From contig OZ241738.1 of the NCBI GenBank assembly GCA_965200925.1, forward strand, positions 491,891 through 555,890: a DNA stretch of 64,000 nucleotides, written 5' to 3'. The DNA is from Alphaproteobacteria bacterium. Lineage in GTDB: Bacteria > Pseudomonadota > Alphaproteobacteria > UBA828. Below, one piece after another: positions 1 to 28,318 of the stretch; positions within the stretch are counted from its first letter, which is position 1; each line of letters starts with the position of its first letter. Below the pieces are notes generated by a model. The model had not been told where the DNA came from. It ran no database searches and saw only the letters and a list, made by a program, of their open reading frames with translations. The position numbers were made by a program, and so were the translations under genes.

Positions 1-2634
1 GGGGCATGGAAGGATACACGCTGCCTCTACCCGATCCTCGATTTCCACGAGGCGGGGCATCGCGCGGTTCTGGTCTATCCCTACGAGGCCAGCGATCCCT
101 GCATCGGCGGTTGCGGACCGGGCATGGTCCAGCTTCTCGCCGAATGCCGCCAGCATGGCCTCGTCTGCCGCAACCTCCATCCCGCCAATCTGCGTGTCGT
201 CGATGGACAGGTCCGGCTGATCGATTACGGCTCGGACCTCCGCCCCCTCCATGACGAGCGCGAATTCACGGCGATGTGCCGGCGCGCCTGGCTGTGTTGC
301 CGGTGGGCCAATCGCCCCGACCTCAAGCGGATCATGCGCCGGGCGCTGGACGATGCCGGCATCCCCGAGCTGGAAGGGTTCGACCGGTTTTACGAAGCGG
401 TCCGGCGGGTGGCGGGGCTGCATGAGACGCCTGAGGACGTCGTGCTCGGGTTGGCCGGGCGGCCCGCGCACGTCCTCGATTACGGGTGCGGAAGCGGCCG
501 ACTGGCCAGCGTCCTGGCCAACCGGGGCGCACGGGTCCTGGGCTACGACCCCGACGGTGCCCATGGAACGCGCTGGGAGGCGCTTTGCGCCGGAGCCGAC
601 AGGCTGCGGTTCACGCGCGACCGGAGCGAGGCGCTGACGGTCGGCCCGTTCGATCTCGTGATCTGCCGCCGCGTTCTGTGCACCGTCGAGGAAGAGGCGG
701 AAATGCGGGCGATCCTCCGCGATTTGCGGGCCGCGGTGGCCGGGCATGGCCGGGTGATCGTAGCCGTCTGCGACCCGCATTTCACCTTCGGAGGCCCGAC
801 CCCGGAGGCCGATCGCGAACTGCCGCCCGGCGCCCGCTACGAGAGCGCGTTCGTATGGCGCAAACGCATTCGCGCGACGGGCCGGACACGCCGCGACGTC
901 CATCGGCCCGAGCGGATGCTGCGGCGCGCGTTCGCCCGCGCGGGCCTCGCGGTGCGCCGCCGCGTGGAGGCGCCGACCATCGACCTGGAGCGCTTCGAGC
1001 CGGCGTCGGACCTTCTGGCGTTCGAACTCCGGCCCCTGGCGCCGCTCGCCGGCGAGGTCGCACTCCTGGTCAAGGCGTGCGCGATGGAGGCGGGAACGAT
1101 CGAAACCCAGGTCCGCCACTTGGTGTCGCAGCTCGAAGGACCGAGGGCGTTCGCCGAGCGGATTCTCGTGATCGATTCCCGCGAGGACGACTTTCTCAGG
1201 CAATACACGCGGGGCGACCTGCGCAGCCTGCGCGAAGCGGCGCGTCGTCTGGCGGAGGCCGGCTGGATCGACCGGATCGTCGAGGGGTCCGGCGACGGCG
1301 AAGCCACCGCGGCGCTGCATCGGGCATGGTTCGGGATTTCGTGCCCGCTGGCGCATGCCGCGACCGGTGCCCAGACGGCTTCGGTGCTGGCGGGGTTCGA
1401 GGCATGCGCGGCGCGCTACGTCCTCCATGTGGATGCGGACGCCATGATCGGTCGTCTGGATCGCAACCATGACTATCTGGCCGAGATGACCGCGGTGCTG
1501 GCCGGTGACCCCGAAGCACTCACCGTATCGTTCAACATCGCCTCCGACCGCAACCGGCCCTACGGCGCCGAAGGAGAGTCCGGCCCGTGGCGCGTGGAAA
1601 CGCGCGCCGTGATGCTCGACCTCTTCCGGCTGCACCGGGCGCGCCCGCTGCCGAACGCGCTCGACGGAGGCCGTTTGGCGCTCCCTTGGCACAGGGCGTT
1701 GGACCAGGCCGTCCGGGGTGGGGCGGGGCGGTCCTGGCGCGGCGGTGACCGCCGGACTTTCTTCGTGCATCCGCCCAACGCACGCAAGCGGGACCGGGAA
1801 GCGTGGTTCGCGACGCTCGACCGTATCGAACGTGGGGCGGTCCCATGCATCCAGAAGGAAAGTGTGAATTGGACGGGAACCGCCGAGGAATGGTCGGAGC
1901 CGCGGCGGCGCGAACCCTTCGTGTTCGTCGTCTCGGGCCGCAACGTGCCGCCGGGCCGGCTGCGCCGCTGCTTCGGCTCGATGATCCGCCAGCGCGGCCC
2001 GCGATGGGGCGCCGTGGTCTTCGACGATGCATCGGAGCCGCGATTCGCCGAGCATTTCGAGATCGCCTGTGCGCGGCTGGGGGCGCACTGCACGGTCGTT
2101 CGCAACCGGGTTCGGCGCGGGCTGCTGGCCAACATGGTCGTCGCCATTCGGACGATATGCGCGAACCCCGACTCGGTAATCGTGACGCTGGATGCGGACG
2201 ACGTCCTGATCGGCGCGCGGGTCTTGGAGCGGCTGGCCGAGGAATACGACCGGGGCGCCGACGCCACTGTGGGTTCAATGCTGCGGACCGACAAGGCCGC
2301 CGACTATCCGGTGTGCTTCGACCGGCCGCGCGAACGGCGAGGCGGCAACGTCTGGCAGCATTTGCGGTCGTTCAGGAAGCGGCTGTTCGACGCCATACCG
2401 GACGAAGCCCTGCGCCTCGACGGCGACTACGTCGACCTCGCCAGCGACTGGGCTTTCATGCTGCCCATCGTGGAGAAGGCCCGTAACCCGGCGTACATCC
2501 GCGAACCGCTCTATCTCTACGAACCTTCGGGGACCGGGAAAGACCCGGCCGGCAGGGCGGCCCGCGAGAAAGTCATCGCGCGCATCGTCGCCAAGGGTCG
2601 CGCAACGGCGGGCAAAGGCCGCGCCGGGCAATGA
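1..2634 (+). CDS. Multidomain glycan-modification protein, 5' end outside the window. Kinase-like N-terminal region, class I SAM-dependent methyltransferase domain, GT2 glycosyltransferase domain.
   Basis: Frame of ORF 124..2634 is open back to position 1 (GAWKDTRCLYPILDFHEAGH... no stop). HPANLRVVDG..IDYGSD resembles a kinase catalytic loop. VLDYGCGSGRLASVLANRGARVLGYDPD is a SAM-MTase motif I. FVFVVSGRNVPP...VVFDDASEP is GT2-like. Confidence 0.6.
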   Translation, partial: GAWKDTRCLYPILDFHEAGHRAVLVYPYEASDPCIGGCGPGMVQLLAECRQHGLVCRNLHPANLRVVDGQVRLIDYGSDLRPLHDEREFTAMCRRAWLCCRWANRPDLKRIMRRALDDAGIPELEGFDRFYEAVRRVAGLHETPEDVVLGLAGRPAHVLDYGCGSGRLASVLANRGARVLGYDPDGAHGTRWEALCAGADRLRFTRDRSEALTVGPFDLVICRRVLCTVEEEAEMRAILRDLRAAVAGHGRVIVAVCDPHFTFGGPTPEADRELPPGARYESAFVWRKRIRATGRTRRDVHRPERMLRRAFARAGLAVRRRVEAPTIDLERFEPASDLLAFELRPLAPLAGEVALLVKACAMEAGTIETQVRHLVSQLEGPRAFAERILVIDSREDDFLRQYTRGDLRSLREAARRLAEAGWIDRIVEGSGDGEATAALHRAWFGISCPLAHAATGAQTASVLAGFEACAARYVLHVDADAMIGRLDRNHDYLAEMTAVLAGDPEALTVSFNIASDRNRPYGAEGESGPWRVETRAVMLDLFRLHRARPLPNALDGGRLALPWHRALDQAVRGGAGRSWRGGDRRTFFVHPPNARKRDREAWFATLDRIERGAVPCIQKESVNWTGTAEEWSEPRRREPFVFVVSGRNVPPGRLRRCFGSMIRQRGPRWGAVVFDDASEPRFAEHFEIACARLGAHCTVVRNRVRRGLLANMVVAIRTICANPDSVIVTLDADDVLIGARVLERLAEEYDRGADATVGSMLRTDKAADYPVCFDRPRERRGGNVWQHLRSFRKRLFDAIPDEALRLDGDYVDLASDWAFMLPIVEKARNPAYIREPLYLYEPSGTGKDPAGRAAREKVIARIVAKGRATAGKGRAGQ

Positions 2635-2909
2635 GGAGACATGTCGTCGCCATCGTTGGTTCGGCCGGCGCGCTTCCGAGAGACCTCCGGCATACCGTTG
2701 AGACGCTCGCATTGGCTCTGTCCAACGCCAACTTCGATCTTGTGACGGGGGGCATGGACGGCGTCATGCGTGCCGTGGCTCGGGGTCACAGCCAGTCGTC
2801 CAGCTCGTCGAATCTCGTCCATATCGAGCCCGAATGGGAGTGCGCATGGGAACAAACCCCAACGGCATACGCCGCACTTGCGGGCGTCGCGCTAGGTGCC
2901 GATCCATAA
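2631..2909 (+). pseudogene. Truncated LOG/TIGR00725-like (SLOG Rossmann) protein fragment
   Basis: VVAIVGSAG...LVTGGMDGVMRAVARG matches the N-terminal ~50 aa of LOG-family proteins. Only 92 aa, and the rest diverges into serine-rich nonsense. Its 3' end overlaps the out-of-frame extension of the GT2 gene on the opposite strand. Confidence 0.3.
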
Positions 2910-3118
2910 GCTCCCCACGGCCGGCAGGCGGCCATACCGTTCGCCCAGATCGGCAAGAAACTGATACGAAAAGGGCCAGCTATAGTCATTCCCCGTTACT
3001 TGGGCGTGCTCCGGCAAGCTCGCGGTGAAATAGGTGTCATCAGAAGTGGAGGCGCCGCCGTGAACCTGGTGGAAGGTCGACTCTCCGAGCAACAACACGT
3101 TGAGGGCGCCGGCTCGGC

Positions 3119-3790
3119 TCACATAGCGACCGAACAGTTCGAGATTGCAGAGCCCCCCCCCCCCGGCCGGAGGAATCCTTCATCATAACCCCCCACGGTA
3201 TTCCAGGTCTCTCTGGACACGCCAAAGGCATTGGTCTCGTTCTGCAGCAGGGGATTGCCCCCATGGTGTGCGCCTGCCCATACGCTGATGGCGTACAGTC
3301 GATCCAAATCGCCCTCCCAATCCACGGAGTCGAGCAAGGCATCCTCCACGGTCTGATCGTAACCTTCCAGCACGGATTGCATCTGTGGCTTGGGGCCGAG
3401 GTGGCGGCTGCCGACGAATGTGAAGGCGTCCGGATGGTGAGTCAGGACATCGAGAGTCCGGCGCACCAAGTGAGAGCTGGCCATGCGGGCGCCGTCGATA
3501 CAGATCAACAGCAAGTCCCCGGTGGCTGAGTCCCGGATCGCGTCGTTGATGGCGCGAGCCGGCGATACTCGGGCATCCTCGGGAGCGATCCGAACGAGAT
3601 GGACGGGACGCGATGACTGGTGGAGGAGATCTCCGAGTTCCAATGCGTCCGGCGAGCCGTTGTCGACGATGATGATCTCGTAATCGACATCCTCGACCGC
3701 TCTTTGCAACGGAGGCAGGAAGGACCGCAGGGTACGCGGTATTTCCCGTTGCATCTTGTAGGCTATGATGACGATCGACAGCTTGAGCAT
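3119..3790 (-). CDS. GT2-family glycosyltransferase (ATG 3790; current frame stops at 3119; a +1 shift at the G12 tract would extend it to 2892)
   Basis: MLKLSIVIIAYK...DYEIIIVDNGS... are GT2 N-terminal motifs, and the start is preceded by a GGAGG SD. The long ORF 3119..4231 upstream of this Met is leader artefact. C-terminal GGGG is encoded by the homopolymer. The out-of-frame ORF 2892..3122 (LCNLELFGRYVSRAGALNVLLLGESTFHQVH...) looks like the normal GT2 C-terminal region. Confidence 0.7.
   Translation of the reverse strand: MLKLSIVIIAYKMQREIPRTLRSFLPPLQRAVEDVDYEIIIVDNGSPDALELGDLLHQSSRPVHLVRIAPEDARVSPARAINDAIRDSATGDLLLICIDGARMASSHLVRRTLDVLTHHPDAFTFVGSRHLGPKPQMQSVLEGYDQTVEDALLDSVDWEGDLDRLYAISVWAGAHHGGNPLLQNETNAFGVSRETWNTVGGYDEGFLRPGGGGSAISNCSVAM
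3153..3164. repeat. Homopolymeric C12/G12 tract inside the GT2 coding sequence
   Basis: Read directly: agcccccccccccc ggccgg at 3151-3170, 12 consecutive C. Confidence 0.9.
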
Positions 3791-3897
3791 GGGAACCTCC
3801 AATGACCCGCTGCCCTTCTCAGGCCGATTAATTGGGGGATTACATACATAGGTTGACAAGAGGATATCAGCTTCGCTGCAGTTCGCTACCCGTATAA

Positions 3898-3964
3898 GCT
3901 GAAGGTCATGGGGTCGGGACCCAACTGCGATAAACTGTCGCCAGGGGTTCAAGCGCCACTGTCG
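3898..3964. repeat. 67-bp perfect direct repeat, left copy (putative attL core of genomic island)
   Basis: gctgaaggtcatggggtcgggacccaactgcgataaactgtcgccaggggttcaagcgccactgtcg is identical to 30213-30279. About 40 bp of weaker similarity lies immediately upstream of both copies, and both are preceded by AT-rich DNA. Confidence 0.75.
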
Positions 3965-4092
3965 ACGCTCGAGAGGCCGGTCTACGATGGCCGAGCGCGG
4001 CGGTATGGCGACGATGCCGGCGGATCGTGCGCGGGCGGAAAGCTGACAAGGCCGTCGAGTCATGTCCGCGCTTCCGCGGCGTTCGCCCCTGC

Positions 4093-5220
4093 TCAATCGA
4101 CGATGAGCCCGTGTTTGGGCAGGAGATCGCGCAGCACATAGATTCGGTGCAGTGCGGCGGCCTGATAGAAGCGCCAGATATGTGTATCCATGGCGATTCC
4201 GTAATCGTCGCCGCCGTCCAGACTTTCCCACTGCGCGTTCCAGTCCTCGCCCTCGTAATCCGGAATCGCCTCGCCGGCTTCACCGAACAGCGTGCCGGCC
4301 CGCGCAGCGTTCTGCCAAGCCTCGACACGTTCGGCTTCGTTGCCCTGGGTCAGCAGAATCTCCCGCACGCGGGGGGCGATGGCTTCGAAGTCCCGGCCGG
4401 CGCCGGTGTCGACGTCGGGCCGCAGACGGGCGAATCGCCGGAACATGTCGTGCAGGGCCCGGCACCCCGCCAGAAAGGTGACCGGGTTGTTGCGCGTGCT
4501 GCGTATCCCGGCGACCGCGTCCGGGCGCTCGTAGTCGTAACTCCAGACCAGATAGGGCCGGTCGGGCAGGGTGGCGACAGAGCCGTGCCCCAGCGCCCCC
4601 GACGCTTCTTCGGCGAGCCAGCCCTGGATGTTGGTGAGCAGGCCGCCATGCGCCCCCCGCTTCTCGAAGAACGAAGCGGCCTTCCGCGTGACATAATCCC
4701 GCATCTCGGACGACAGCTTCGCCGTCGCACCGTCTGCGCCTTCGACCTCCTCGTGAAAGCGGAAACTGCCGTTGTCGACTCTGTTGCCGCGGGAGCTGAC
4801 GCCCGAGAATCCGTAGTGCGAGAACGTGTCGGCATAGACGTGCGCGGCGATGCCCAGCAGGTGCGGCGCGAAGGCGCGATCCGCATACGTCAGATGGTGG
4901 TCGCGCATCTCCCGCGCGATCCCGCTGTCCATGCGGCACTTCAAGCGTTCCGTGTAGGTCTCGCCGACGTTGCCGGGAATGAAATGGAACGGCACCCACA
5001 CCCGGCGCTGGTCGCGGTCGTCGCGGTTGGAGAGGTCGAAGGGATGATGGGCGGTGGCTTCCGTGTCGATGCGCGACCCGTCCCGAAAGGTCACCCGGCT
5101 TCGCGCCGCGTTGTCGTCCACGAACTGGGCAGACATCGCGACGACCCGCGCCGTTTCCCGCTCCAGTCCCGCGGCGCGGGCCATGGCGTAGGCACCGTAA
5201 TAATGCATGTCGATCTGCAT
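4093..5220 (-). CDS. Hypothetical His-rich protein, possibly a metal-dependent hydrolase (Zn-PLC/S1-P1 nuclease-like fold very tentative); first gene inside the island
   Basis: Real start taken at MQIDMHYYGAYAMARAAG (ATG 5220); upstream part of ORF 4093..5382 is leader. Motifs HHPFD and HLLGIAAHVYADTFSH. Diverse amino-acid composition, unlike the overlapping antisense ORF 4027..5808. Confidence 0.45.
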   Translation of the reverse strand: MQIDMHYYGAYAMARAAGLERETARVVAMSAQFVDDNAARSRVTFRDGSRIDTEATAHHPFDLSNRDDRDQRRVWVPFHFIPGNVGETYTERLKCRMDSGIAREMRDHHLTYADRAFAPHLLGIAAHVYADTFSHYGFSGVSSRGNRVDNGSFRFHEEVEGADGATAKLSSEMRDYVTRKAASFFEKRGAHGGLLTNIQGWLAEEASGALGHGSVATLPDRPYLVWSYDYERPDAVAGIRSTRNNPVTFLAGCRALHDMFRRFARLRPDVDTGAGRDFEAIAPRVREILLTQGNEAERVEAWQNAARAGTLFGEAGEAIPDYEGEDWNAQWESLDGGDDYGIAMDTHIWRFYQAAALHRIYVLRDLLPKHGLIVD

Positions 5221-5286
5221 CGCGTTCTCCCGTCGTCGAATGCCCTTCGATATGCGGCGCCGGCGCGGGATTTCAAGGGGTTTCCT

Positions 5287-5312
5287 GTTTGCCGGCAAAC
5301 TTGCCGGCAAAC
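5287..5312. promoter_or_regulatory. Tandem palindromic operator-like site GTTTGCCGGCAAAC-TTGCCGGCAAAC in the divergent region upstream of brxA
   Basis: Perfect 14-bp palindrome followed by a second 10/12-bp copy with 12-bp periodicity. Located between the divergent hypothetical gene start (5220) and brxA start (5481). Confidence 0.4.
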
Positions 5313-5480
5313 ATATGGCCTGTCGTTGACGGAGCACCGGCGCCGTGGTAGCGACCAGCCGCCATGCACGGTCAGGCCGCATGTTCCTTTCGCCTCTCGC
5401 CGGACGCCGAGTCCCGCGCCGGGGCCGAAACGGCCGGCTTCCGCCTTGGGGCCAAAGGCACGCACACCAGCCGCACGATC

Positions 5481-6173
5481 ATGCTGGCGGAGCTGGAGGC
5501 GGTCCTGGCAGCGGCCGGTGCGGACGCCGCGCGGGCCGACTACGCGGCGGCGATCATTGAGACCAACTGTTTGTCGAAGCCTACCGCGGCGACGCGCCGG
5601 CTCTCGTGCCAGCGGCTGCGCGAGCTCCACGGGCTGGACCCGGCGCTGCCGCTGTTCCGCGTGCTCCGGCGCCTCTGGGCCTTCGATCCGGCGGGCCGCC
5701 CGCTTCTGGCCTTGCTGTCGGCGCTCGCTCGGGATCCGCTGCTTGCCGCCACCGTTCCCGCGATCGTGTCCCTGCCGCCCGGCGCCGATTTCCAGCGTGC
5801 GCCGATGAAGGCCGCGCTGCGGAGCGCCGTGGGCGAGCGCCTGAATGAGGCGGTCCTCGACAAGACCTGCCGCAACGCGGCCAGCAGCTGGACGCAATCG
5901 GGGCATCTCGAAGGGCGGACGTTCAAGAAGCGGCGGCGGGTCACGGCCTCCACGGCGGCCGTCGCCTTCGCCCTCTGGCTCGCCGGCGCCGCAGGCTGTC
6001 GCGGCGCTGGCGTCTTCGTCTCGGCGTGGCTGCGGCTGGCCGATTGCGGTCCCTCGCGGGCGCGCCGCCTGGCCCTGGAAGCGAAGCGGCTCGGCCTGAT
6101 CGACCTCCGGATGGCCGGCGATGTCGTCGAGCTCGACACGGCCCGGCTCGACCCCGCCGGAAGAGGGGTGTGA
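5481..6173 (+). CDS. brxA: BREX protein BrxA (DUF1819-like)
   Basis: First gene of a co-directional operon followed by BrxB and BrxC. Size ~230 aa; start ATG 5481 inside ORF 5364..6173. Assignment rests mainly on position and size. Confidence 0.55.
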   Translation: MLAELEAVLAAAGADAARADYAAAIIETNCLSKPTAATRRLSCQRLRELHGLDPALPLFRVLRRLWAFDPAGRPLLALLSALARDPLLAATVPAIVSLPPGADFQRAPMKAALRSAVGERLNEAVLDKTCRNAASSWTQSGHLEGRTFKKRRRVTASTAAVAFALWLAGAAGCRGAGVFVSAWLRLADCGPSRARRLALEAKRLGLIDLRMAGDVVELDTARLDPAGRGV

Positions 6174-6739
6174 CCGTGTCGCGCATCGAGGACCTCGCGG
6201 AAGCCTACGGCCGGCATATTGCGACGCCCTGGCAGCGGACGGTCGCCGGCGCCCAGCGTGTCGTGATGGTCGTCTACGACAAGGAGCAGGAGCGGATGCT
6301 GCGCGCCCGCAGGCTCGCCTTCGAGACCGCGACAAAGCGGGCCGGATACGCTTGGCTGGAGGTCGATCTGGCGCCGGCTTTCGCCGAATGGATGGCCGGC
6401 GACGAATACCGGGAGGCGTATTTCGCGACGCCCGAGGATCTGCGGCTGAAGCTCGACGCCGCGTTCCCGGACCATGTGGCCGGCCGCATCCGCGAGCGGC
6501 TGACTTCGGCGGACGCCACGGAGGCTTCCGTCGTCGCGGTCTTCGGCGCGGGCGCGCTCTTCGGCCTCGCGCGGGTCTCGCGAATCCTCGGCATGGTCGA
6601 GAGCGATATCCGCGGCCACCTCGTCCTTTTCTTCCCGGGTCAGTACGAACGGAACAACTACCGCTTGCTGGACGCGCGCGACGGCTGGAACTATCTCGCC
6701 GTGCCGATCACGCTGCGTGGCGCGGAGGAGCACGGATGA
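6170..6739 (+). CDS. brxB: BREX protein BrxB (DUF1788-like)
   Basis: ~190 aa. GTG 6170 overlaps the brxA stop (GTGA). Immediately precedes BrxC, whose ATG overlaps its stop (ATGA). Confidence 0.6.
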   Translation: MTVSRIEDLAEAYGRHIATPWQRTVAGAQRVVMVVYDKEQERMLRARRLAFETATKRAGYAWLEVDLAPAFAEWMAGDEYREAYFATPEDLRLKLDAAFPDHVAGRIRERLTSADATEASVVAVFGAGALFGLARVSRILGMVESDIRGHLVLFFPGQYERNNYRLLDARDGWNYLAVPITLRGAEEHG

Positions 6740-9700
6740 AGATCAAGGACGTCCTCCAGCGCGATCCTGCGGCGCACCCCCTCGTCAACAAGGGCCAGGC
6801 CCGGATCGCCGACCGCGAGGACGCGCAGGTGATGCGGGAGCTGCACGGCGAGCTCGCGACCTTCGTCTGCGAGGGCCAATATGCGGACGGCATCCAGAGG
6901 ATCGTCCGTTCGTTCCTCGACGATCTGGGCCGGACCAGCCAGCGCGGCGCCTGGGTCAGCGGCTTCTTCGGCAGCGGCAAGTCGCACCTCCTGAAGATGC
7001 TCTGCCACCTGTGGCGCAACACCGAATTCCCCGACGGGGCGACGGCGCGCAGCCTGGTTCCCGCGATCCCCGAAGATCTGGCCGCGCTGCTGCGCGAGCT
7101 CGACGTCGCCGCCCGGCGCGCCGGCGGCCTCATGGCCGCGGCCGGTTCGCTGCCCAGCGGCAGCACCGACCACGTGCGCCTCACCATCCTCGGGCTGCTG
7201 CTGCGCGCCGCCGGCCTGCCGGCGCAGTACCCCCAGGCCCGGTTCTGCCTGTGGCTGCACGCCGAGGGGCGCTTCGACGCCGTGAAATCCGCGGTCGAAG
7301 CGGAGGGCCGGCGCTTCGAGCGGGAGCTCAATGACCTCTATGTGAGCGGCGCGATCGCCCGCGCCGTCCTCGCCTGTGCCCCGTCCTTCGCGGCCGGCGA
7401 AGCCGAGGCCAGGCAAGCGATCAGGGCGCAATTCCCGCCCCAGGCCGCCGACATCGCGACGGCGGAGTTCCTGCGCACGGCCAAGGACGCCCTGGCGCAT
7501 GCTTCCGATAGTGAGGGCCGGGTGCCGTGCACACTCGTCGTGCTCGACGAAGTGCAGCAATATATCGGCGATTCGACCGAGCGTTCCATGCTCGTCACCG
7601 AAGTCGCGGAAGCCGTCGAAAAGCAGCTCGATAGCCACGTGATGATCGTCGGCGCGGGCCAGAGCGCGTTGACCGACGCGCCGCTCCTCCAGAAGCTGAT
7701 GGACCGCTTCACGATCCGCGTCCCGCTCTCCGACGCCGACGTGGAGACGGTCACCCGCAAGGTGCTGCTCCAGAAGAAACCCAGCGCCGTCGCCGCTCTG
7801 CGCGCGCTGCTCGAAAGGCACGGCGGCGAGATCTCGCGGCAACTCCAGGGGACCCGGCTGGGCGAGACCGCTGCGGACCGCGTGGCCCTTGCGGACGACT
7901 ACCCGCTGCTGCCGGTCCGCCGGCGTTTCTGGGACGCCTGCTTCCGCCAGATCGACGCGGCCGGCACCCACAGCCAGTTGCGTTCGCAGCTGCGCATCGT
8001 CCACGACGCCCTGGCCAGACTCTCCGACCGGCCGCTCGGCGCGGTCGTCGCCGGCGACGAACTGTTCGATGCGCTCGCGCCCGAGATGGTCAACACCGGC
8101 GTGCTGCTGCGGGAGATCAACGAACGGATCATCGAGGTCGGCGAGGCCGAAGGCGCGCTCGCGCGCCGCCTCTGCGGGCTGATCTTCCTGATCGGCAGGC
8201 TGGCGCGGGAGGCGGGAGCGGATACCGGCGTCCGGGCGACCGCAGACCACCTCGCCGATCTGGTCATCGACGATCTCGCCGCCGACAACGGCAAGCTCCG
8301 CAGCGCGGTCGAAACGACGCTCGGCAAGCTCGCCGGCAACGGCATCCTGATGCGGGTGGGCGAGGAATACCGCCTTCAGACCCGCCAGGGCGCCGAATGG
8401 GATCGGGAGTTCCGCAATCGGCAGACCCGCCTGAACAACGATTCCGCCGCGATCCAGCTTCGGCGCGACGCGCTTCTCCACGGAGAGATCGACAGGATCG
8501 TCCGCGGTCTGCGCATGGTCCAGGGGGCGGCGAAGGAACCCCGGCGCTTCGCCGTTCACCGGGGGGCGTCCCCGCCGCCCGCCGCCGACGGTTCCACGAT
8601 CCCGGTCTGGGTCCGCGACGGCTGGGCGGCGTCGGAGAAGGCGGCGGTGGAGGCGGCGCGGGCGGCGGGCGCCGCCGACCCGACGATTCACGTCTTCGTG
8701 CCCCGTCGTTCGGCGGACGATCTGCGCCGCCTGATCGTCGAGGCGGCCGCGGCCGAACAGGCGCTCGACGCGCGCGGCAACCCGACCGAGCCCGAAGGCC
8801 AGGAGGCGCGCCGGAGCATGGAGAGCCGTCGCGCCCGCGCCGAGGCCGGGCGCGACGCTCTGGTCCGCGACGTCGCCGCCAACGCCAAGGTCTTCCAGGG
8901 CGGCGGCAACGAGGTCCTTCTCGCGGCGCTGGAAGACCGCCTCCGGGCCGCCGGCGAGGACGCGCTCGCGCGCCTGTTCCCCCGCTTCAGGGAAGCCGAT
9001 GGCGCGGCGTGGCCGTCCGTCATCAAGCGTGCGCGTGACGGCGCCGACCACCCGCTCCAGCCGGTCGGGCACACGGACGCGGTGGAAAAGCACGCGGTCT
9101 GCCGGCAGGCGCTTGCCGAGATCGGCGTCGGCGCGTCCGGGGCCGCGTTGCGCAAGGCGCTGGCCGGCCCGCCCTTCGGTTGGCCGCGCGACGCCGTGGA
9201 CGCGGCGCTGATCGCGCTGCATCGCGCGCGGCATCTGTCCGCGACGCTGAACGGCGCGGCGCTCCCGCCAGGCGGGCTCGACCAGAACCGCATCGCGAAG
9301 GCGGCGTTCCGCGCCGAGCGCGCGGCCCTCTCGGTTCAGGATCGCTTGGTCCTGCGGAAGCTCTTCCAGGCCGCCGATCTTGCCTGCAAGAGTGGCGAGG
9401 AGGAAGCCCGGGCGAATGATTTCCTGGACACGCTTGCCGAACTCGCCCGTTCGGCCGGCGGTGAACCGCCGCTTCCCGTCCCGCCCGGTACGGTCGACGT
9501 CGAGGACGCGCGCCGGCTGGCCGGGAACGAACGGCTGGCGGCCATCCGCGACAAGGCCGACGAATGGGAAGGGAAGATCGCCGAGTGGCGCGCGGCGGCG
9601 AAGTCGATCGCCGCGCGTCTGCCGGCATGGCGCCTGGTCGAGCGGCTGGCGGCGCATGCCGAAGGGATCGAAGAGGCCGGGCCGCAGCGCCGCGAGGTGG

Positions 9701-10191
9701 CGGCGGTGCGCGACGGGCGGCAATTGCTGGCGGGCGCGGATCCGGCCGCCGCCATCCGCAAGGCGCTGGCGGACCTTCTCCGCGCTTCCGTCCGGGCCGG
9801 GTTCGAGGCCCTTGAGGCCGCCTTCGCCGAGGCCATGCGGACTCTCGACGCGAACGAAGCATGGCGAAAAGCCGCGCCCGCCGACCGCGAGGCGATCCTG
9901 AAAGAGGCGGGGCTGGCCGCACCGGCGAAGCCGGAGGTCGCGACCGACGAAGCCCTGGCCGACTGCCTCGACCGGCGCTCCCTTGCGGGCGTCCGCGCCG
10001 AGATCGACGCCGTCCCGGCACGCGCGGCCCGTGCCGTCGAGCGGGCGGCCCGGCTGCTGGAACCGAAGGTCCGCCCGGTCGCCCTGGAGCGGGCCACCTT
10101 GCGCGACGCCGCCGAGGTCGAGGCGTGGGCCGAGCGCCAGAAGAAGGCGCTGCTCGAAGCCGTCGCCGACGGCCCGGTGCTGGTGAATTGA
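6736..10191 (+). CDS. brxC: BREX P-loop ATPase BrxC/PglY (~1150 aa)
   Basis: MKIKDVLQRDP... N-terminus with Walker A GFFGSGKSHLLKMLCHLW. Large size and position between BrxB and PglX. Confidence 0.85.
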   Translation: MKIKDVLQRDPAAHPLVNKGQARIADREDAQVMRELHGELATFVCEGQYADGIQRIVRSFLDDLGRTSQRGAWVSGFFGSGKSHLLKMLCHLWRNTEFPDGATARSLVPAIPEDLAALLRELDVAARRAGGLMAAAGSLPSGSTDHVRLTILGLLLRAAGLPAQYPQARFCLWLHAEGRFDAVKSAVEAEGRRFERELNDLYVSGAIARAVLACAPSFAAGEAEARQAIRAQFPPQAADIATAEFLRTAKDALAHASDSEGRVPCTLVVLDEVQQYIGDSTERSMLVTEVAEAVEKQLDSHVMIVGAGQSALTDAPLLQKLMDRFTIRVPLSDADVETVTRKVLLQKKPSAVAALRALLERHGGEISRQLQGTRLGETAADRVALADDYPLLPVRRRFWDACFRQIDAAGTHSQLRSQLRIVHDALARLSDRPLGAVVAGDELFDALAPEMVNTGVLLREINERIIEVGEAEGALARRLCGLIFLIGRLAREAGADTGVRATADHLADLVIDDLAADNGKLRSAVETTLGKLAGNGILMRVGEEYRLQTRQGAEWDREFRNRQTRLNNDSAAIQLRRDALLHGEIDRIVRGLRMVQGAAKEPRRFAVHRGASPPPAADGSTIPVWVRDGWAASEKAAVEAARAAGAADPTIHVFVPRRSADDLRRLIVEAAAAEQALDARGNPTEPEGQEARRSMESRRARAEAGRDALVRDVAANAKVFQGGGNEVLLAALEDRLRAAGEDALARLFPRFREADGAAWPSVIKRARDGADHPLQPVGHTDAVEKHAVCRQALAEIGVGASGAALRKALAGPPFGWPRDAVDAALIALHRARHLSATLNGAALPPGGLDQNRIAKAAFRAERAALSVQDRLVLRKLFQAADLACKSGEEEARANDFLDTLAELARSAGGEPPLPVPPGTVDVEDARRLAGNERLAAIRDKADEWEGKIAEWRAAAKSIAARLPAWRLVERLAAHAEGIEEAGPQRREVAAVRDGRQLLAGADPAAAIRKALADLLRASVRAGFEALEAAFAEAMRTLDANEAWRKAAPADREAILKEAGLAAPAKPEVATDEALADCLDRRSLAGVRAEIDAVPARAARAVERAARLLEPKVRPVALERATLRDAAEVEAWAERQKKALLEAVADGPVLVN

Positions 10192-10203
10192 GGAGATACC
10201 GCA

Positions 10204-11403
10204 ATGTCCTTCATCCGCCGTATCGGCCTGCGCGGCCTGCTGTCGTTTCCGCCCGACATGGAGCCGTTCGATTTCCAGCCGCTGAACGTGCTGATCGGCC
10301 CCAACGGCTCCGGGAAGACGAACCTGATCGAGGCGCTGGAGCTTCTCCGCGCGACGCCAACGGATTTCGCCGCCGCGATCCGCGATGGCGGCGGCGCGGC
10401 GGAATGGTTGTGGAAAGGCGAGAATCCAGCGAGGGCGGCGACGGTAGACATCGAGACCGGAGACTCGACGCCATCGACCGGCCGGCCGTTGCGCTATCTT
10501 CTCCAATTCACGTCGTCGAATAGCCGGGTCGAGGTGCTCGACGAAGCGATCGAGGAAGTGAAGCCCGACATTGGACATGACGAACCGTATTTCTATTATC
10601 ACTTCCAGCAGGGACGACCGGCCATTAACGTCAAAGAGACAACGGAAGGTGGTTCTGGTGGACATGTGGAAAGGCGCCTCAAGCGAGACGACATTTTGCC
10701 GGATCAGTCTGTCCTGATGCAACGCAAGGAACCGGATCTCTACCCGGAAGTCGCTTGGATCGGGCGCATGTTCGGGCAAATCCAGACGTTCCGCGACTGG
10801 ACCTTCGGGCGTTATGCTCCATTAAGGCAGCCACAACCTGCGGATCTGCCGGAGGATCGACTGCTGCCCGATAATCGCAACTTAGCCTTGCTTCTCAATC
10901 AAGTCGAACACCGTGATCCTCGGCGGTTCAACGAACTCCTTAAGCGATTCTTCCCACGTTTTGAACGGATGTCGACCAGGATCTCCGGCGGCACGGTGCA
11001 ATTCTATCTGCATGAGTCCGGTTTCGAGTCACCGATCCCCCCGACACGGCTGTCGGATGGGACGGTGCGCTTTGTCGCTATCCTCGCGACCCTGCTGGCG
11101 CCGTCGCCGTCGCCGCTCGTATGCATTGAAGAACCGGAGCTCGGGCTGCACCCCGACGCGCTGACGCTGGTTGCCGAGCTTCTGGTAGAGGCATCCGAGC
11201 GTATGCAACTTGTGGTCACCACGCATTCGGATGCACTTGTCTCCGCGTTGACGAACCAACCGGAATCTGTCGTTGTTTGCGAGCGGCCGGGTGCGGGTAC
11301 CGTGCTGGAACGACTCGATCCCGAAAAGTTGGCGCACTGGTTGAACGAGGATTATGGGCTTGGCGACTTGTGGCGTATCGGAAAACTGGGCGCCAATCCA
11401 TGA
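10204..11403 (+). CDS. ABC-type ATPase (AAA_21/AAA_15-like; OLD/AriA/PtuA-like N-terminal ATPase), module 1
   Basis: Walker A LIGPNGSGKTNLIEALELL. Walker B/D-loop LVCIEEPELGLHPDA. H-loop VVTTHS. 399 aa. Confidence 0.75.
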   Translation: MSFIRRIGLRGLLSFPPDMEPFDFQPLNVLIGPNGSGKTNLIEALELLRATPTDFAAAIRDGGGAAEWLWKGENPARAATVDIETGDSTPSTGRPLRYLLQFTSSNSRVEVLDEAIEEVKPDIGHDEPYFYYHFQQGRPAINVKETTEGGSGGHVERRLKRDDILPDQSVLMQRKEPDLYPEVAWIGRMFGQIQTFRDWTFGRYAPLRQPQPADLPEDRLLPDNRNLALLLNQVEHRDPRRFNELLKRFFPRFERMSTRISGGTVQFYLHESGFESPIPPTRLSDGTVRFVAILATLLAPSPSPLVCIEEPELGLHPDALTLVAELLVEASERMQLVVTTHSDALVSALTNQPESVVVCERPGAGTVLERLDPEKLAHWLNEDYGLGDLWRIGKLGANP

Positions 11404-12011
11404 GTTCCGTCGAAATCTATATGGAGGGGGGAGGGGATCATCGAAATGGTAAGGAACGTCTTCGTCTCGGTATGGATGCGTTTCTTAGCGAGATGAAGGG
11501 CATGGCCAGGTCCCGGTCGACCCGCTGGAGACTCGTTCTTTGTGGTGGGCGGAACCAGGCATATCGGGCGTTTGTGGAAGCGTGTCGGAGCGACCGGGAC
11601 AGCATCTTCGTGCTGCTGGTCGATTCGGAAGGTCCCGTAAATTCCTCGCCGCGCGCCCATCTGGCCGCGGACGGGTGGGACCTGGACGGAGTGGACGAAG
11701 ACCGGGTTCATCTGATGGTCCAGACGATGGAAACCTGGATCGTCGCCGACCCCGAGGCCCTTGCCGCCTATTACAGGCAGAGCTTTCGAGCGAACGCTCT
11801 CCCGGCGGCGGACGACCTGGAAACGGTCGCCAAGAACGAGGTCGCCAGTGCCCTGGACCGGGCGACCGAGCAGACGCAGAAAGGCCGCTACCACAAGATC
11901 CACCACGCCGCCGACCTCCTCGCGTGCATCGACCCGGCGAAGGCGCGGGCGCGCTGCCGCCATTGCGAGCGCCTGTTCGCCACCCTCGACGCGGCCGTCG
12001 CGGCGGGGTGA
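11400..12011 (+). CDS. Small TOPRIM-like partner protein (DUF4276-like; alternatively DUF4435/AriB-like), module 1
   Basis: ATG 11400 overlaps the ATPase stop (ATGA). ~203 aa. N-terminal EIYMEGGGD (conserved Glu) and LLVDSEG (acidic motif) are consistent with TOPRIM/OLD-nuclease-like small partners of AAA_21 ATPases. Confidence 0.55.
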   Translation: MSSVEIYMEGGGDHRNGKERLRLGMDAFLSEMKGMARSRSTRWRLVLCGGRNQAYRAFVEACRSDRDSIFVLLVDSEGPVNSSPRAHLAADGWDLDGVDEDRVHLMVQTMETWIVADPEALAAYYRQSFRANALPAADDLETVAKNEVASALDRATEQTQKGRYHKIHHAADLLACIDPAKARARCRHCERLFATLDAAVAAG

Positions 12012-12100
12012 GGCGATGAGCGCGCTTTCGCGGGAATCGCGCCGGGCGCTGGAGAGGGCCGTCCGCAAGGCCCGCGCCGCCGCCGAAGCGGGCGCGGGCA
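11984..12100. repeat. ~117-bp direct duplication, copy A, spanning the DUF4276-1 3' end and the first 28 codons of pglX (near-identical copy B at 14003-14119)
   Basis: gcggccgtcgcggcggggtgaggcgatgagcgcgctttcgcgggaatcgcgccgggcgctggagagggccgtccgcaaggcccgcgccgccgccga is identical in both copies, then 2 mismatches and divergence after gggcaag. Confidence 0.85.
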
Positions 12101-12132
12101 AGATGAAGTTGGGGGGAGGGGAGGAGAGATGA
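12016..12132 (+). pseudogene. pglX 5' stub (MSALSRESRRALERAVRKARAAAEAGAGK + 9 unrelated codons); insertion scar
   Basis: Translation is identical to the first 28 residues of full-length PglX at 14025. Terminates after KLGGGEER; its stop overlaps the ATPase-2 start (ATGA). Confidence 0.7.
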
Positions 12133-13355
12133 ACATGACCGACGAACAGCTTGCTGGCGTTCCGCGGATCGAGCGTTTGAAGGTGCGGAATTTTCGGGTG
12201 TTGAAAGACGTCGATATAAGGGATTTGACGCCTTTGACGGTGCTGCTTGGACCGAACGGGAGCGGCAAAACCACCTTGTTCGACGTGTTCGCGTTCCTCT
12301 CCGAATCCTTCGAGGACGGCCTGAGGCGCGCCTGGGATCGACGCGGGCGGGCCAGAGAGCTCAAGACCCGTGGCGCCAAAGGCCCGGTCATCGTCGAACT
12401 CAAATACCGCGAGCGACCGGGCACACCGCTTATCACCTATCACCTGGAGGTGGACGAGCATGATGGCGCGCCCAGTGTCGTCCGTGAATGGCTATGGTGG
12501 AAACGGCACAGCTATGGACGCCCGTTTCGTTTTCTCGAATACCGAAATGGCGGAGGCACAGCGATCAGCGGCGAACAACCCGATGTCGAGGAGGATAGAA
12601 TCCCAATTCCTCTCAAGTCTCCCGACCTGCTGGCGGTCAACACGCTTGGGCAGCTCCGGGAGCATCCGCGCGTGGCCGCGCTGCGCGACTTCATTATGAA
12701 CTGGCACGTATCCTACCTTTCCGTGGATGACGCGCGCGGGCATCCGGAAGCGGGCCCCGAGAAGTGGTTGACCAGGACCGGCGATAATCTCGCCAACGTG
12801 ATTCAGTATCTGAAGGAGAATCATCCGAAGCGGTTGAAGAGGATATTCAAATTATTGGGGCGGCGGGTGCCGCATGTCGAGAAGGTTCGCGCTGAAACCA
12901 TGCCGGACGGGCGACTGCTTCTGCAAATCAAGGACGCGCCGTTCGATCATCCGGTTCAGGCGCGCTTCGCTTCCCATGGAACGCTCAAGATGCTGGCCTA
13001 TCTGGTGTTGCTGCATGACCGGAATCCGTCGCCGTTCATCGGTATCGAGGAACCGGAGAATTTCCTGCATCCGAGGCTACTTCCCGAATTGGCGGAAGAA
13101 TGCCGCGCGGCCAGCGCGCGCACGCAACTGCTCGTCACGACGCACTCCCCGTTTTTTCTGAACGCGCTTCGCCCCGAGGAAGTCCGCGTTTTGTGGCGCG
13201 ACGAAACCGGCCACGCGCAGGTCGAGCAGACCTCTGGTCTCGAGGGAGTGGCGGAGTTCATGGATAACGGGGCGCTGCTCGGGCAGCTGTGGGCAGAAGG
13301 GCAGTTCGGCGTCGGCGATCCACTGGTCCGTCGCGGCGGAGGACGCCGCCGATGA
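12129..13355 (+). CDS. ABC-type ATPase (AAA_21-like), module 2, diverged paralogue of the 10204 gene
   Basis: RIERLKVRNFRVLKDVDI...LTVLLGPNGSGKTTLFDVFAFL (Walker A). FIGIEEPENFLHP (Walker B). LVTTHSPFF (H-loop). 408 aa. Confidence 0.75.
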   Translation: MNMTDEQLAGVPRIERLKVRNFRVLKDVDIRDLTPLTVLLGPNGSGKTTLFDVFAFLSESFEDGLRRAWDRRGRARELKTRGAKGPVIVELKYRERPGTPLITYHLEVDEHDGAPSVVREWLWWKRHSYGRPFRFLEYRNGGGTAISGEQPDVEEDRIPIPLKSPDLLAVNTLGQLREHPRVAALRDFIMNWHVSYLSVDDARGHPEAGPEKWLTRTGDNLANVIQYLKENHPKRLKRIFKLLGRRVPHVEKVRAETMPDGRLLLQIKDAPFDHPVQARFASHGTLKMLAYLVLLHDRNPSPFIGIEEPENFLHPRLLPELAEECRAASARTQLLVTTHSPFFLNALRPEEVRVLWRDETGHAQVEQTSGLEGVAEFMDNGALLGQLWAEGQFGVGDPLVRRGGGRRR

Positions 13356-13969
13356 CGTCGGCGCGCCATTTTATATTTCTTGTCGAGGAACCATCCATGG
13401 AGGCGTTTCTCCAGGCGCTCGTTCCACGTATTCTTCCCGATTGCGAGTGCGACATTCGACTGTTTCAGGGGAAACGGGATACGATGAAAAATCTACCGAA
13501 CCGTCTTCGCGCTTATAGCCGCTGGCTGCCCGAAAATTGGCGTATCGTCGTGATGGTCGATCGCGACAACGACGATTGCCGGCTGCTCAAGGCGCAGCTG
13601 GAAAAGGCAGCTGCCGAGTCGCGGCTACGCACGCGCGCGCAATCCGGCGGCGCTTGTTGGCAGGTCGTCAACCGCATCGTGATCGAAGAACTGGAGGCTT
13701 GGTATTTCGGAGACTGGGACGCCGTTCGGCGCGCCTACCCAAAGGTTCCCGATACGATTCCGGGGAAAGCTAAATACCGGAACCCGGACGAGATACACGG
13801 CGGAACGTGGGAAGCATTCGAGCGTGTCCTTCAGAAGCACGGGTATTTCAAGGGTGGGCTACGCAAGATCGAGGCCGCGTGCGCCATCGCCCCGCACGTC
13901 GATCCAGGGCGCAACCGGTCGCCGAGTTTCGCGGCGTTTCGCGATGCACTCGTCGAGGCGGCTGCCTGA
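13352..13969 (+). CDS. Small TOPRIM-like partner protein (DUF4276-like), module 2
   Basis: ATG 13352 overlaps the ATPase-2 stop. ~205 aa. FIFLVEEPSMEAF (conserved Glu) and VMVDRDNDD (DxD) are typical of TOPRIM. Confidence 0.55.
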   Translation: MTSARHFIFLVEEPSMEAFLQALVPRILPDCECDIRLFQGKRDTMKNLPNRLRAYSRWLPENWRIVVMVDRDNDDCRLLKAQLEKAAAESRLRTRAQSGGACWQVVNRIVIEELEAWYFGDWDAVRRAYPKVPDTIPGKAKYRNPDEIHGGTWEAFERVLQKHGYFKGGLRKIEAACAIAPHVDPGRNRSPSFAAFRDALVEAAA

Positions 13970-14002
13970 CGATGGCGATTGGGAAGAAATGCTGGCGGCG
14001 CG

Positions 14003-20494: not shown

Positions 20495-20503
20495 GGCGCG
20501 GCG

Positions 20504-24030: not shown

Positions 24031-24032
24031 CG

Positions 24033-28310: not shown

Positions 28311-28318
28311 GGTGGAGA

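Follow-up and report, generated by a model that had tools for sequence, protein, structure and literature searches.

Length variation of a poly-G tract in a glycosyltransferase gene beside a BREX island: a candidate phase-variable locus in an uncultured alphaproteobacterium

A glycosyltransferase gene of an uncultured high-GC alphaproteobacterium is split by a run of 12 G on its coding strand, and the length of this run differs among near-identical strains. The window, that is, the whole 64-kb stretch of DNA analysed here, carries a frameshifted allele. The explanation favoured here, with moderate confidence, is a slippage-driven ON/OFF switch (a phase-variable or contingency locus) of an acquired glycan-modifying glycosyltransferase gene. 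As a poly-G on/off site, the locus is of a well-known kind: homopolymer switches in glycosyltransferase genes are textbook examples in the host-adapted pathogens Campylobacter, Neisseria, Helicobacter and Haemophilus. To our knowledge, there is hardly any record of them in GC-rich alphaproteobacteria from environmental or symbiotic settings. The gene and its signals occupy the following positions of the window:

3119..3790, minus strand: 5' part of the glycosyltransferase gene (OFF allele, 223 aa), with ATG at 3790 and stop TGA at 3121-3119
3153..3164, minus strand: poly-G tract (C12 on the plus strand, G12 on the coding strand), the putative slippage site
2892..3152, minus strand: 3' part of the gene in another frame, 86 codons and stop TAG at 2894-2892 (LCNLELFGRY...SLWIGT*)
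3796..3800, minus strand: Shine-Dalgarno-like GGAGG, 5 nt upstream of ATG 3790, conserved in the related contig L001

The preliminary description of this DNA had reported a 12-C homopolymer at 3153-3164, a gene truncated by it and a continuation in the other frame to 2892, and direct reading of the sequence bears out all three. The truncated product ends ...FLRPGGGGSAISNCSVAM*, its TGA stop lying 31 nt beyond the tract, and the continuation frame reads GGGGLCNLELFGRYVSRAGALNVLLLGESTFHQVHGG...SLWIGT* from 3164. Addition of one G (G13) joins the two parts into a protein of 299 aa, and removal of two G (G10) into one of 298 aa. Products of 298 aa (G10), 249 aa (G11) and 223 aa (G12) all correspond to observed alleles, so that the locus shows the alternation of truncated and full-length forms that characterises an SSR phase-variable locus. 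The exact 223-aa product is already recorded as a protein on a 3,548,566-bp contig, and the 3' part, starting from GTG 3122, is recorded as a separate 76-aa protein (P0122); in annotation, both entries belong to one frameshifted gene of variable tract length and should be joined. What is annotated as a 'split gene' in a finished genome need not be a dead gene or an assembly error, and can be one of the states of a variable locus. A promoter scan at the locus found none, and the only terminator-like hairpin (2874-2860) is weak and no better than expected by chance.

Three elements make up the tract: the third base of a Pro codon (CCG), Gly codons (GGG) and two additional G. It is the sole homopolymer of at least 8 nt in the window, where the longest other run is a single G7 (38661-38667). 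About 49 runs of at least 7 are expected from the base composition of the window, versus the G12 and one G7 observed, and runs of at least 12 were reached in 3 of 100 dinucleotide-preserving shuffles. The G12 run within the glycosyltransferase ORF lies above the cut-off that PhasomeIt applies to SSR phase-variable loci, a G/C run of at least 7 within an ORF (PMC6321876). The window holds no further homopolymer of at least 8 and so offers no hint that the tract belongs to a larger group of phase-variable loci.

The continuation had been taken for the C-terminal region of a glycosyltransferase, and both full-length homologues of ~300 aa and the predicted fold agree with this assignment. A search with the joined protein found 670 homologues, the best 120 of which are ~300 aa long and align with 96-100% coverage and 54-78% identity. 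Hundreds of proteins of ~300 aa match at 65-78% identity with 100% of the length aligned. The sequence R-P-G-G-G-L-C-N-L-E is invariant or nearly so in sets of 20 and of 117 sequences. The 5' part of the gene holds the nucleotide-binding half of the GT-A fold, and the 3' part contains the family-invariant residues NLE and GE.TFH..H. In their source records the homologues are named only 'glycosyltransferase family 2/A protein' or 'hypothetical'. An alignment to PF00535 had been proposed as a check of full-length coverage, for which this family proved unsuitable: its match (31.3-32.2 bits against a Pfam gathering score of 23.3) spans only about residues 5-121 and, being confined to the N-terminal ~120 aa, cannot confirm the C-terminus. 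Among NCBIfam models, no equivalog matched the joined protein at its cut-off, and a sequence profile search of solved structures matched the N-terminus only.

Structure prediction extends the assignment across the tract. In the AF2 model (pLDDT 91.8, pTM 0.92), the GGG residues cap helix 211-222, which is followed by strand 228-239. Foldseek aligned ~270-290 columns of this model to GT-A enzymes with probability 1.0, including K4CP (E=7e-11), ppGalNAc-T2 and WrtF; taken together, the AF2 and Foldseek results predict that the entire catalytic domain, with the region beyond the tract, adopts a GT-A fold. With K4CP chondroitin polymerase, ppGalNAc-T2 and WrtF (PDB 2z87, 2ffu and 9oml) the enzyme shares this fold over nearly its whole length (TM ~0.55-0.59), and its N-terminal nucleotide-binding half matches PF00535. 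It differs from them in that identity is only 15-18%, the DxD position reads D-G-A, and no solved structure matches the C-terminal half in sequence. More fully, the DxD position reads C-I-D-G-A-R, with a single Asp, and D99 and G100 are invariant. Metal ligands might be supplied by H239 and H242, two invariant residues encoded downstream of the tract. The gene product is thus a predicted soluble GT-A (GT2-like) glycosyltransferase of an uncharacterised family. Among GTDB representative genomes no close relative was found, the best match being 67% identical ('Candidatus Azophilus'). A search of viral contigs returned no relatives, and a DNA pattern scan of JGI metagenomes, using the flanks with a variable gap, gave 0 matches.

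The tract is built on the invariant Pro-Gly-Gly-Gly motif, which, when written CCG GGG GGG GGG, gives a run of G10. The canonical intact state is therefore G10, and the window stands at +2. Alignment of the family supports G10 as its consensus ON state (R-P-G-G-G-L), and this state is seen in three related contigs (L066, L067 and L068). The earlier proposal that a 13-nt tract restores the gene holds for the reading frame, which G13 does rejoin, but not for the family ON state: G13 adds a fourth Gly to the invariant GGG motif, and the activity of such an allele is uncertain. More generally, because the tract lies inside an invariant motif of the catalytic domain, in-frame alleles of different length are unlikely to be equivalent. 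In 85 more distantly related members of the family, the motif is written in mixed Gly codons (GGG 16%), with G runs of 2-8, mostly of 3 or fewer. The gene itself, outside the tract, uses GGC 14 times versus GGG 5 times. The long G run is probably a derived state in this lineage, and the case shows that such a tract can arise from the codons of an invariant Pro-Gly-Gly-Gly motif. No frameshift at the PGGG site was found in 17 truncated members of other clades, which have N-terminal truncations or other lesions. Since other clades also hold truncated members, length heterogeneity of protein clusters is a weaker control than hoped.

Tract length was compared in 14 alleles, the window included, of which 13 are on contigs 98-99.7% identical and one is at 92.7%. 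In each contig, the DNA between GATGAAGGATTC and TGCAATCTCGAACTG was compared, with the following states (sequence, length of the segment, reading frame):

Window: CC-G12, 23 nt, OFF
L066, L067, L068: CC-G10, 21 nt, ON
L069: CC-G7, 18 nt, in frame
L001: CTCC-G11, 18 nt, in frame
L070: C-G14, 24 nt, in frame
L071, L072, L156: C-G12, 22 nt, OFF
L157, L158: CC-G11, 22 nt, OFF
L073: C-G15, 25 nt, OFF
L002: G11, 22 nt, OFF

The related contigs thus carry runs of 7, 10, 11, 12, 14 or 15 G, and further protein variants of the same 90% clusters imply G8 and G9. Six of the 14 alleles are in frame and eight are out of frame. Eight tract states occur among the 13 contigs that are at least 98% identical, a count that includes SPIRE and Logan contigs, which may share some source samples; this is the variation between close strains expected of an SSR phase-variable locus. 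In all 13 pairwise alignments (~50 kb, 97.7-99.6% identity to the window), the gene region has no indel other than the tract, and four tract states (those of the window, L073, L156 and L157/L158) lie on haplotypes at most 3 SNPs per 1,146 nt apart. Runs of 7 to 15 G at the same spot in near-identical strains point to a real slippage-prone site, in support of the phase-variation candidate put forward in the preliminary description. For PhasomeIt, too, variability between homologues is a sign of phase variation (PMC6321876). Public metagenome assemblies are enough to recover polymorphism of this kind, and no cultures are needed.

Sequencing error had been named as the alternative to phase variation. 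Applied to the window, this explanation would give the organism a G10 or G13 tract and an intact gene, the 12 being an error of the consensus. Runs of 12 are the most error-prone sites on every platform, and the window comes from a 3.55-Mb contig, which is probably a long-read assembly. All four contigs with long-read-assembler-like names are OFF, as against six of nine short-read contigs in frame, so that some OFF calls could be homopolymer miscounts; this enrichment is weak (P=0.04), and the contigs are not independent. Two contigs show other signs of error: in L071 a neighbouring gene is split by a G4>G3 indel, and L073 has a split gene call. Short-read assemblies are out of frame too, however (L072, L156 and L158), and the same haplotype has the same length across assembly types: three contig pairs with zero SNPs over 1.17 kb (L067/L068, L071/L072 and L157/L158) share one tract state within each pair, and two of the three appear to come from different assembly types. 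Across more than 5 kb, moreover, comparison of the window with near-identical short-read scaffolds (L158) shows no further indel, and L074 and L075 match it at 100% identity across 1.5 kb. To hide an in-frame state, the error would have to be of -1 or +2; an undercount of G13 is conceivable, but CC-G13 occurs in no relative. Miscounting is accordingly refuted for the polymorphism as a whole, and it is an improbable account of the window, whose own 12 could nevertheless be off by one.

Real polymorphism does not by itself make a switch. The tract could be a non-adaptive mutational hotspot in a dispensable gene, in which codon drift within a Gly-rich motif made the G run and slippage repeatedly inactivates the product; the population would be losing the gene or coping without it, and the locus would be decaying. 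The canonical RPGGGL is present in only 3 of the 14 DNA-verified alleles; eight are frameshifted and three are in frame with an altered invariant motif. Alleles that are in frame with G7, with G14 or without Pro no longer match the invariant GGG or P and may be inactive. So small a share of canonical alleles also fits relaxed selection, and the in-frame share of 6/14 is near one third, the value expected without selection. In the sister cluster at 92% identity, each of the three members has a frameshift, and the gene is foreign and mobile, since L002 shares with the window this gene alone. Neutral drift of three glycine codons can, according to the PhasomeIt paper, yield such tracts (PMC6321876).

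The state of the two halves argues against decay. The 618-nt upstream and 261-nt downstream ORFs are open in all 14 alleles, bar one stop in L073, a contig of 2x coverage, which leaves 13 of 14 alleles without a second lesion. Between the window and L002, dN/dS is 0.26 upstream (P=3e-5) and 0.30 downstream (binomial P=0.004). By these ratios both gene halves are under purifying selection, and the downstream frame is so between clades whose sampled members are all or mostly OFF. In-frame lengths separated by multiples of three (18, 21 and 24 nt) occur on different haplotypes. Furthermore, one synonymous GGG>GGC change, which the codon usage of the gene favours, would stabilise the tract, yet 0 of 14 alleles have it. 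Decay is therefore a serious but rather unlikely explanation.

A phase-variable switch, the preferred reading, would have arisen and would operate as follows. In this lineage, all codons of the invariant PGGG motif are now written CCG GGG GGG GGG, which places G10 in the middle of the catalytic domain. Slipped-strand mispairing during replication would then add or remove G far faster than ordinary sites mutate, leaving closely related cells with in-frame alleles (the canonical G10 and variants) or frameshifted ones. The window's G12 (+2) ends the protein at 223 aa, with loss of ~30% of the fold and of invariant residues, which probably turns the enzyme OFF. A further slip to G10 or G13 within a clone would turn the gene ON again. 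The target of the enzyme would most plausibly be a surface polysaccharide, and the benefit could be, for example, a change of phage receptor.

Long homopolymers can also cause transcriptional slippage, and both gene halves are conserved and intact. G12 might accordingly be a programmed expression device, on which RNA polymerase or the ribosome slips to yield the full-length enzyme. Known productive slippage sites, however, are mostly A/T runs. Related strains carry many lengths, including the in-frame G10, which is unexpected for a fixed signal, and distant family members have no run. Thus, the locus lacks the fixed, conserved slippery sequence of programmed frameshifting or transcriptional slippage, and recoding is a very improbable explanation.

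Among known switches, wlaN and cgtA of the Campylobacter jejuni LOS locus are poly-G phase-variable glycosyltransferase genes, and lgtA, lgtC, lgtD and lgtG of Neisseria and futA and futB of Helicobacter pylori are homopolymer switches. The Neisseria and H. pylori genes share with the present one a poly-G or poly-C run in a glycosyltransferase ORF (acting on LOS or LPS there), where slipped-strand mispairing would lead to stochastic glycan variants. They belong, however, to mucosal, host-adapted pathogens under immune selection, and their switching is experimentally verified, whereas the present gene comes from environmental or symbiotic metagenomes, with phage as the most plausible pressure. 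The C. jejuni genes resemble it in an intragenic G run of 7-15, with a mode near 9-10, in lengths that differ between close strains, in a tract that can come from consecutive Gly codons, and in the apparent frameshift ON/OFF control of a glycan-modifying glycosyltransferase (phasome, PMC6321876). In contrast to the ~70% GC uncultured alphaproteobacterium, Campylobacter is a 30% GC pathogen that lacks mismatch repair, and it has dozens of such loci per genome instead of a single one in 64 kb. Unlike its tracts, the one described here lies in an invariant catalytic motif, in which in-frame variants are probably not interchangeable.

A closer parallel in base composition is pglX of the Pgl/BREX-like system of S. 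coelicolor, for which G-tract phase variation in a high-GC bacterium is described (Sumby & Smith, 2003, as cited in PMC4365076). The ON/OFF rates of 1e-2 to 1e-4 quoted there show that a GC-rich genome does not keep long G runs from switching efficiently (PMC4365076). By that account, the two cases share a high-GC genome, a G homopolymer within an ORF and a theme of phage defence or phage receptors. They differ in that the S. coelicolor switch is in the defence methyltransferase itself, and here it would be in a glycosyltransferase adjoining a BREX island. The pglX gene of the window has a 21-nt in-frame tandem repeat instead of a G tract of the kind reported for S. coelicolor. The island and the other neighbours of the gene lie as follows:

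1..2634, plus strand: 3' part of a GT2-methyltransferase-GT2 multidomain gene (~1,744 aa whole), with methyltransferase and PF00535 domains, cut by the window start
2631..2909, plus strand: convergent 92-aa ORF, SLOG/LDcluster4-like (PF18306, 31.2 bits)
3882..3971, no strand assigned: 90-nt direct repeat at the island border, left copy (family D4; the copy at 30197-30286 is 91% identical)
3972..30196, no strand assigned: strain-variable insertion of 26.2 kb with type 1 BREX and extra ATPase genes, absent in L001, L066, L157 and L158
5364-6173: BrxA
within 6026-6739: BrxB
within 6121-10191: BrxC
within 13824-17735: PglX
within 20734-24030: PglZ

The glycosyltransferase gene had been placed at an island boundary, and the 26.2-kb insertion does begin 92 nt upstream of its ATG. 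The preliminary description had also called the gene compositionally foreign at ~58% GC; it is indeed well below its flanks, although its GC content is 60.6% rather than ~58%. This contrast with the surrounding 69-71% GC marks the gene as accessory and acquired by horizontal transfer. The 90-nt repeat is present in a single, intergenic copy upstream of the gene in island-free relatives, and both copies match L001 5820-5902. A search at the repeat found no tRNA or Rfam RNA, and the island's right end yielded neither an integrase nor any Pfam domain.

The BREX island is context and not part of the switch. A more specific proposal is that stochastic G10<->G11/G12 switching of a surface-glycan glycosyltransferase beside the island forms a phage-receptor switch that complements intracellular defence, as a true contingency locus of an uncultured, high-GC and Rhodospirillales-like bacterium; this proposal is tentative, and doubtful as it stands. 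If the gene modifies a surface glycan, receptor heterogeneity would occur beside a BREX defence island, with a bearing on natural phage-host dynamics. If the locus is a contingency locus, sets of phase-variable genes in uncultured bacteria could be read from tract polymorphism across metagenome assemblies.

On the other side of the gene, the product of the multidomain GT2-methyltransferase-GT2 gene, the neighbouring gene for glycan synthesis, is 1,741-1,744 aa in L067 and L071. No linkage of this large gene to the glycosyltransferase family was found outside the present clade; distant relatives of the glycosyltransferase lie in clusters of GT2, methyltransferase and sulfotransferase genes. These surroundings give the gene a glycan context, which counts in favour of the proposed switch. 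The convergent 92-aa ORF and the 3' end of the full-length glycosyltransferase gene share 18 nt, and the two adjoin each other in 11 related contigs.

The glycosyltransferase gene is split at a homopolymer that reads, on the minus strand of the window, ...GGATTC CTC CGG CCG GGG GGG GGG GGC TCT....

Reading frames at the tract (window coordinates)
3153-3164, minus strand: poly-G run of 12 G, from direct reading of the sequence
3800-3796, minus strand: GGAGG ahead of the ATG at 3790, from direct reading
3790 (ATG) to 3121-3119 (TGA), minus strand: 5' ORF of the gene, running across the tract, 223 aa
Ending at 2894-2892 (TAG), minus strand: continuation frame, starting one base earlier, 86 further codons past the tract

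Translation of the window shows the third frame at the tract to be closed. The two ORF parts are joined by one additional G (13) or by the removal of two (10), so the arithmetic of the preliminary description, in which a 13-mer brings both parts into one frame, is right. Such a run stands out in this DNA: the only other homopolymer of at least 7 in the window is a G7 at 38661 (~49 expected from base composition) and runs of at least 12 arose in 3 of 100 dinucleotide-preserving shuffles. The gene was also described as compositionally foreign; its GC content is indeed lower than that of its surroundings (60.6% vs. 69-71%), although not as low as the ~58% first given.

The frame 3' of the tract is genuine coding sequence. 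A search with the joined 299-aa protein returned 670 homologues; for the best 120, each of ~300 aa, identity is 54-78% and the alignment spans 96-100% of the query, confirming the suggestion that the continuation resembles a glycosyltransferase C-terminal region. Two alignments, one of 20 sequences and one of 117, place the motif R-P-G-G-G-L-C-N-L-E at the tract site. Its three glycines, N, L, and E never vary, and the same holds for a set of residues farther downstream (G, E, T, F, H, H). PF00535 (Pfam), proposed as a check of full-length coverage, matches residues 5-121 only; none of the NCBIfam equivalogs fits the joined protein, and a PDB sequence search matched the N-terminus, with nothing for the C-terminal part. 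Because all three miss the C-terminus, the PF00535 check is unable to decide the point, which the homologues settle instead. In a confident AlphaFold model from the 117-sequence alignment (pLDDT 91.8, pTM 0.92), GGG caps helix 211-222 at its N-terminal end and a long strand (228-239) comes next. Foldseek aligned 270-290 columns to GT-A enzymes, e.g., K4 chondroitin polymerase, ppGalNAc-T2, and WrtF. Since the model and these matches extend the GT-A fold past the tract, the 223-aa product is predicted to lack ~30% of the fold and, presumably, activity.

The sequence P-G-G-G-L is written CCG GGG GGG GGG CTC, a run of ten G. The canonical state is therefore G10, not G13, and the window allele is G10 plus two. 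A G13 allele would restore the frame, as first claimed, but with a fourth Gly in a motif invariant among 117 relatives, so its activity is uncertain. The homopolymer is a derived feature of the window's clade. In 85 more distant family members, drawn from genomes and metagenomes, the same three glycines are encoded by GGC (107), GGT (65), GGA (43), and GGG (40), and the longest G run at the motif is 2-8, mostly at most 3; the gene's Gly codons outside the tract are GGC 14 times vs. GGG 5 times. The origin of the tract follows a route described for PhasomeIt, in which "three consecutive glycines become 9Gs" (PMC6321876).

The tract varies in length among near-identical strains. The gene's 90%-identity cluster holds 26 proteins of 76, 96, 97, 222, 223, 248, 249, 253, 297, 298, and 299 aa, whose sequences diverge exactly at the tract. 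It was also read from the DNA of 13 related contigs, as the stretch between two fixed anchors, yielding 14 alleles with the window.

Tract states on the coding strand (bounding bases and number of G; stretch between anchors; frame)
Window: CC-G12; 23 nt; OFF
L066, L067, L068: CC-G10; 21 nt; canonical ON
L069: CC-G7; 18 nt; in frame
L001: CTCC-G11, Pro codon gone; 18 nt; in frame
L070: C-G14; 24 nt; in frame
L071, L072, L156: C-G12; 22 nt; OFF
L157, L158: CC-G11; 22 nt; OFF
L073: C-G15; 25 nt; OFF
L002 (gene 92.7% identical): G11; 22 nt; OFF

The 21-nt ON and 22-nt OFF states, one step apart, account for 10 of the 14 alleles, and protein sequences of other cluster members imply G8 and G9. The bases bounding the tract vary as well. 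CC (window 3165-3166) becomes CG, Pro to Arg, among L070-L073 and L156, on at least two haplotype backgrounds, and L001 lacks it entirely. Either alteration (CCG to CGG; Pro codon loss) makes the pure G run longer, and such boundary alterations recur on different haplotypes, reflecting either recurrent boundary erosion or recombination.

A homopolymer sequencing error had been named as the alternative. Pairwise alignments of the contigs with the window, ~50 kb in all at 97.7-99.6% identity, show the tract as the sole indel in each contig's gene region, with just a handful of indels elsewhere. Three contig pairs have zero SNPs over a shared 1.17-kb segment (L067/L068, L071/L072, L157/L158) and equal tract states within each, which makes the lengths reproducible and heritable; in two of the three, one member is a short-read scaffold and the other bears a name suggestive of a long-read assembler, and some of the SPIRE and Logan contigs may share source samples. 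Haplotypes at most 3 SNPs apart (window, L073, L156, and L157/L158) carry four different states, so change at the tract is orders of magnitude faster than at an average site. For two neighbouring housekeeping genes, each 90% cluster has a single protein length (189 aa in one, 318 aa in the other). The 17 truncated members read from other clades of the family all cross RPGGGL in frame, their truncations lying at other places. The four contigs presumed to be long-read are without exception out of frame; among them, one shows a further homopolymer indel, in a gene nearby, and another a split gene call. Sequencing artefact cannot account for the polymorphism as a whole, although the window's exact count of 12 could be off by one. 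The further indel is a G4-to-G3 difference in L071 (~469-801; window ~30559), whose name suggests a long-read assembler, and splits the isochorismatase gene; it is likely a homopolymer error, and such contigs are less reliable at G runs.

Both halves of the gene are open in all 14 alleles, with one extra stop in L073 only (2x coverage). Comparison of the window with L002 gives a dN/dS of 0.26 for the part of the gene upstream of the tract and 0.30 for the downstream part, with a significant synonymous excess in each (P = 3e-5 and P = 0.004, respectively). The downstream ratio and excess show that this frame has been under purifying selection, though sampled members of both clades are mostly OFF, a pattern expected of a switchable gene and not of an old pseudogene. 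A non-adaptive mutational hotspot in a gene undergoing loss stays a serious rival to switching, because only 3 of the 14 alleles are canonical, the in-frame share overall (6/14) is near one third, and in-frame enrichment in short-read contigs is weak (6/9, P = 0.04).

If the gene does switch, slipped-strand mispairing on the G run at replication would add or remove G's. G10 would give the canonical enzyme, G11 and G12 would give truncated, presumably inactive products (249 aa and 223 aa, respectively), and further slips would restore the frame. The data establish the polymorphism, its confinement to the tract, and the intactness of the gene; reversibility, rate, activity loss, substrate, and benefit are presumptive. 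The locus would work like the poly-G/poly-C glycosyltransferase switches of Campylobacter, Neisseria, and Helicobacter, and a high-GC precedent exists in the G-tract switching of pglX in Streptomyces coelicolor, at rates of 1e-2 to 1e-4 (PMC4365076). At the level of sequence the locus qualifies as a candidate contingency locus on four counts: the length of the tract, its place inside an ORF, the toggling of frames, and the variability between strains; the defining behaviour of such a locus would be reversible, high-frequency switching with a phenotype. The proposed phase variation is supported in that sense, with the canonical length corrected from G13 to G10. The host is an unusual one for a known type of switch. 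Its assignment as a high-GC alphaproteobacterium is supported by the neighbouring prephenate dehydratase, whose closest matches are Rhodospirillaceae and Rhodospirillales MAG proteins (77-78%).

The gene lies right at an island boundary, as first reported. The L001 scaffold (98.5% identity) joins window 629-3971 directly to 30204-36002, and the window therefore carries an insertion between direct repeats.

Insertion and cassette boundaries
Window 3972-30196: 26.2-kb insertion, from comparison with L001, beginning 92 nt upstream of the glycosyltransferase ATG
Window 3882-3971 and 30197-30286: 90-nt direct repeats bounding the insertion, 91% identical
L002 5987-6879 (window 3806-2911): glycosyltransferase copy, 92.7% identical, frameshifted at G11

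The insertion, present at least in its left part in L067, L070, L072, and L073 and absent in L001, L066, L157, and L158, encodes a type 1 BREX system (BrxA, BrxB, BrxC, PglX, PglZ) and AriA/HEC-01-like ATPases; searches at its ends revealed neither an integrase nor a tRNA or other known RNA. On its other side, the gene is convergent with a small SLOG-like ORF, followed by a ~1,744-aa GT2-methyltransferase-GT2 gene, a linkage confined to the window's clade. L002 shares the gene alone, the common sequence beginning ~12 nt ahead of the ATG and ending ~19 nt short of the stop; around it in L002 lie phage tail genes, a Glucos_trans_II (GtrII-like) gene, and an rve-family transposase. Because homology ends at the gene borders in this unrelated context, the gene is a mobile cassette. 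Distant relatives sit in GT2, methyltransferase, and sulfotransferase gene clusters, which fits a role in surface or secreted polysaccharide.

Several minor features were recorded. Family proteins P0354, P0355, P0357, P0332, P0383, and P0397, from other clades, are recurrent 207-aa N-terminally truncated gene calls on Mb-size contigs, starting at M(V/I)CIDGAR, a sign that in other lineages the gene's 5' half is recurrently disrupted in a second, different way. Within the insertion, 116-nt direct repeats (11987-12102 and 13996-14111, 97% identical) bracket an AriA/HEC-01A-like ATPase gene (12129-13355) between BrxC and PglX, which suggests that a cassette entered the BREX operon and that the 5' region of pglX was duplicated in the process. 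A 21-nt tandem repeat (14391-14577; 8.9 copies, 98% identity) occupies, in frame, a stretch of the N-terminal region of the PglX ORF (13824-17735), upstream of the start of the PglX profile match (residue 252), and is possibly a length-variable segment of the defence methyltransferase. GC-rich degenerate tandem repeats of 15-29 nt, rich in CCCCGCG, occur at 37497-37581, and the window's single Rfam family to exceed its gathering score is the bacterial small SRP RNA (RF00169, 60.3 bits; 36198-36289, plus strand).
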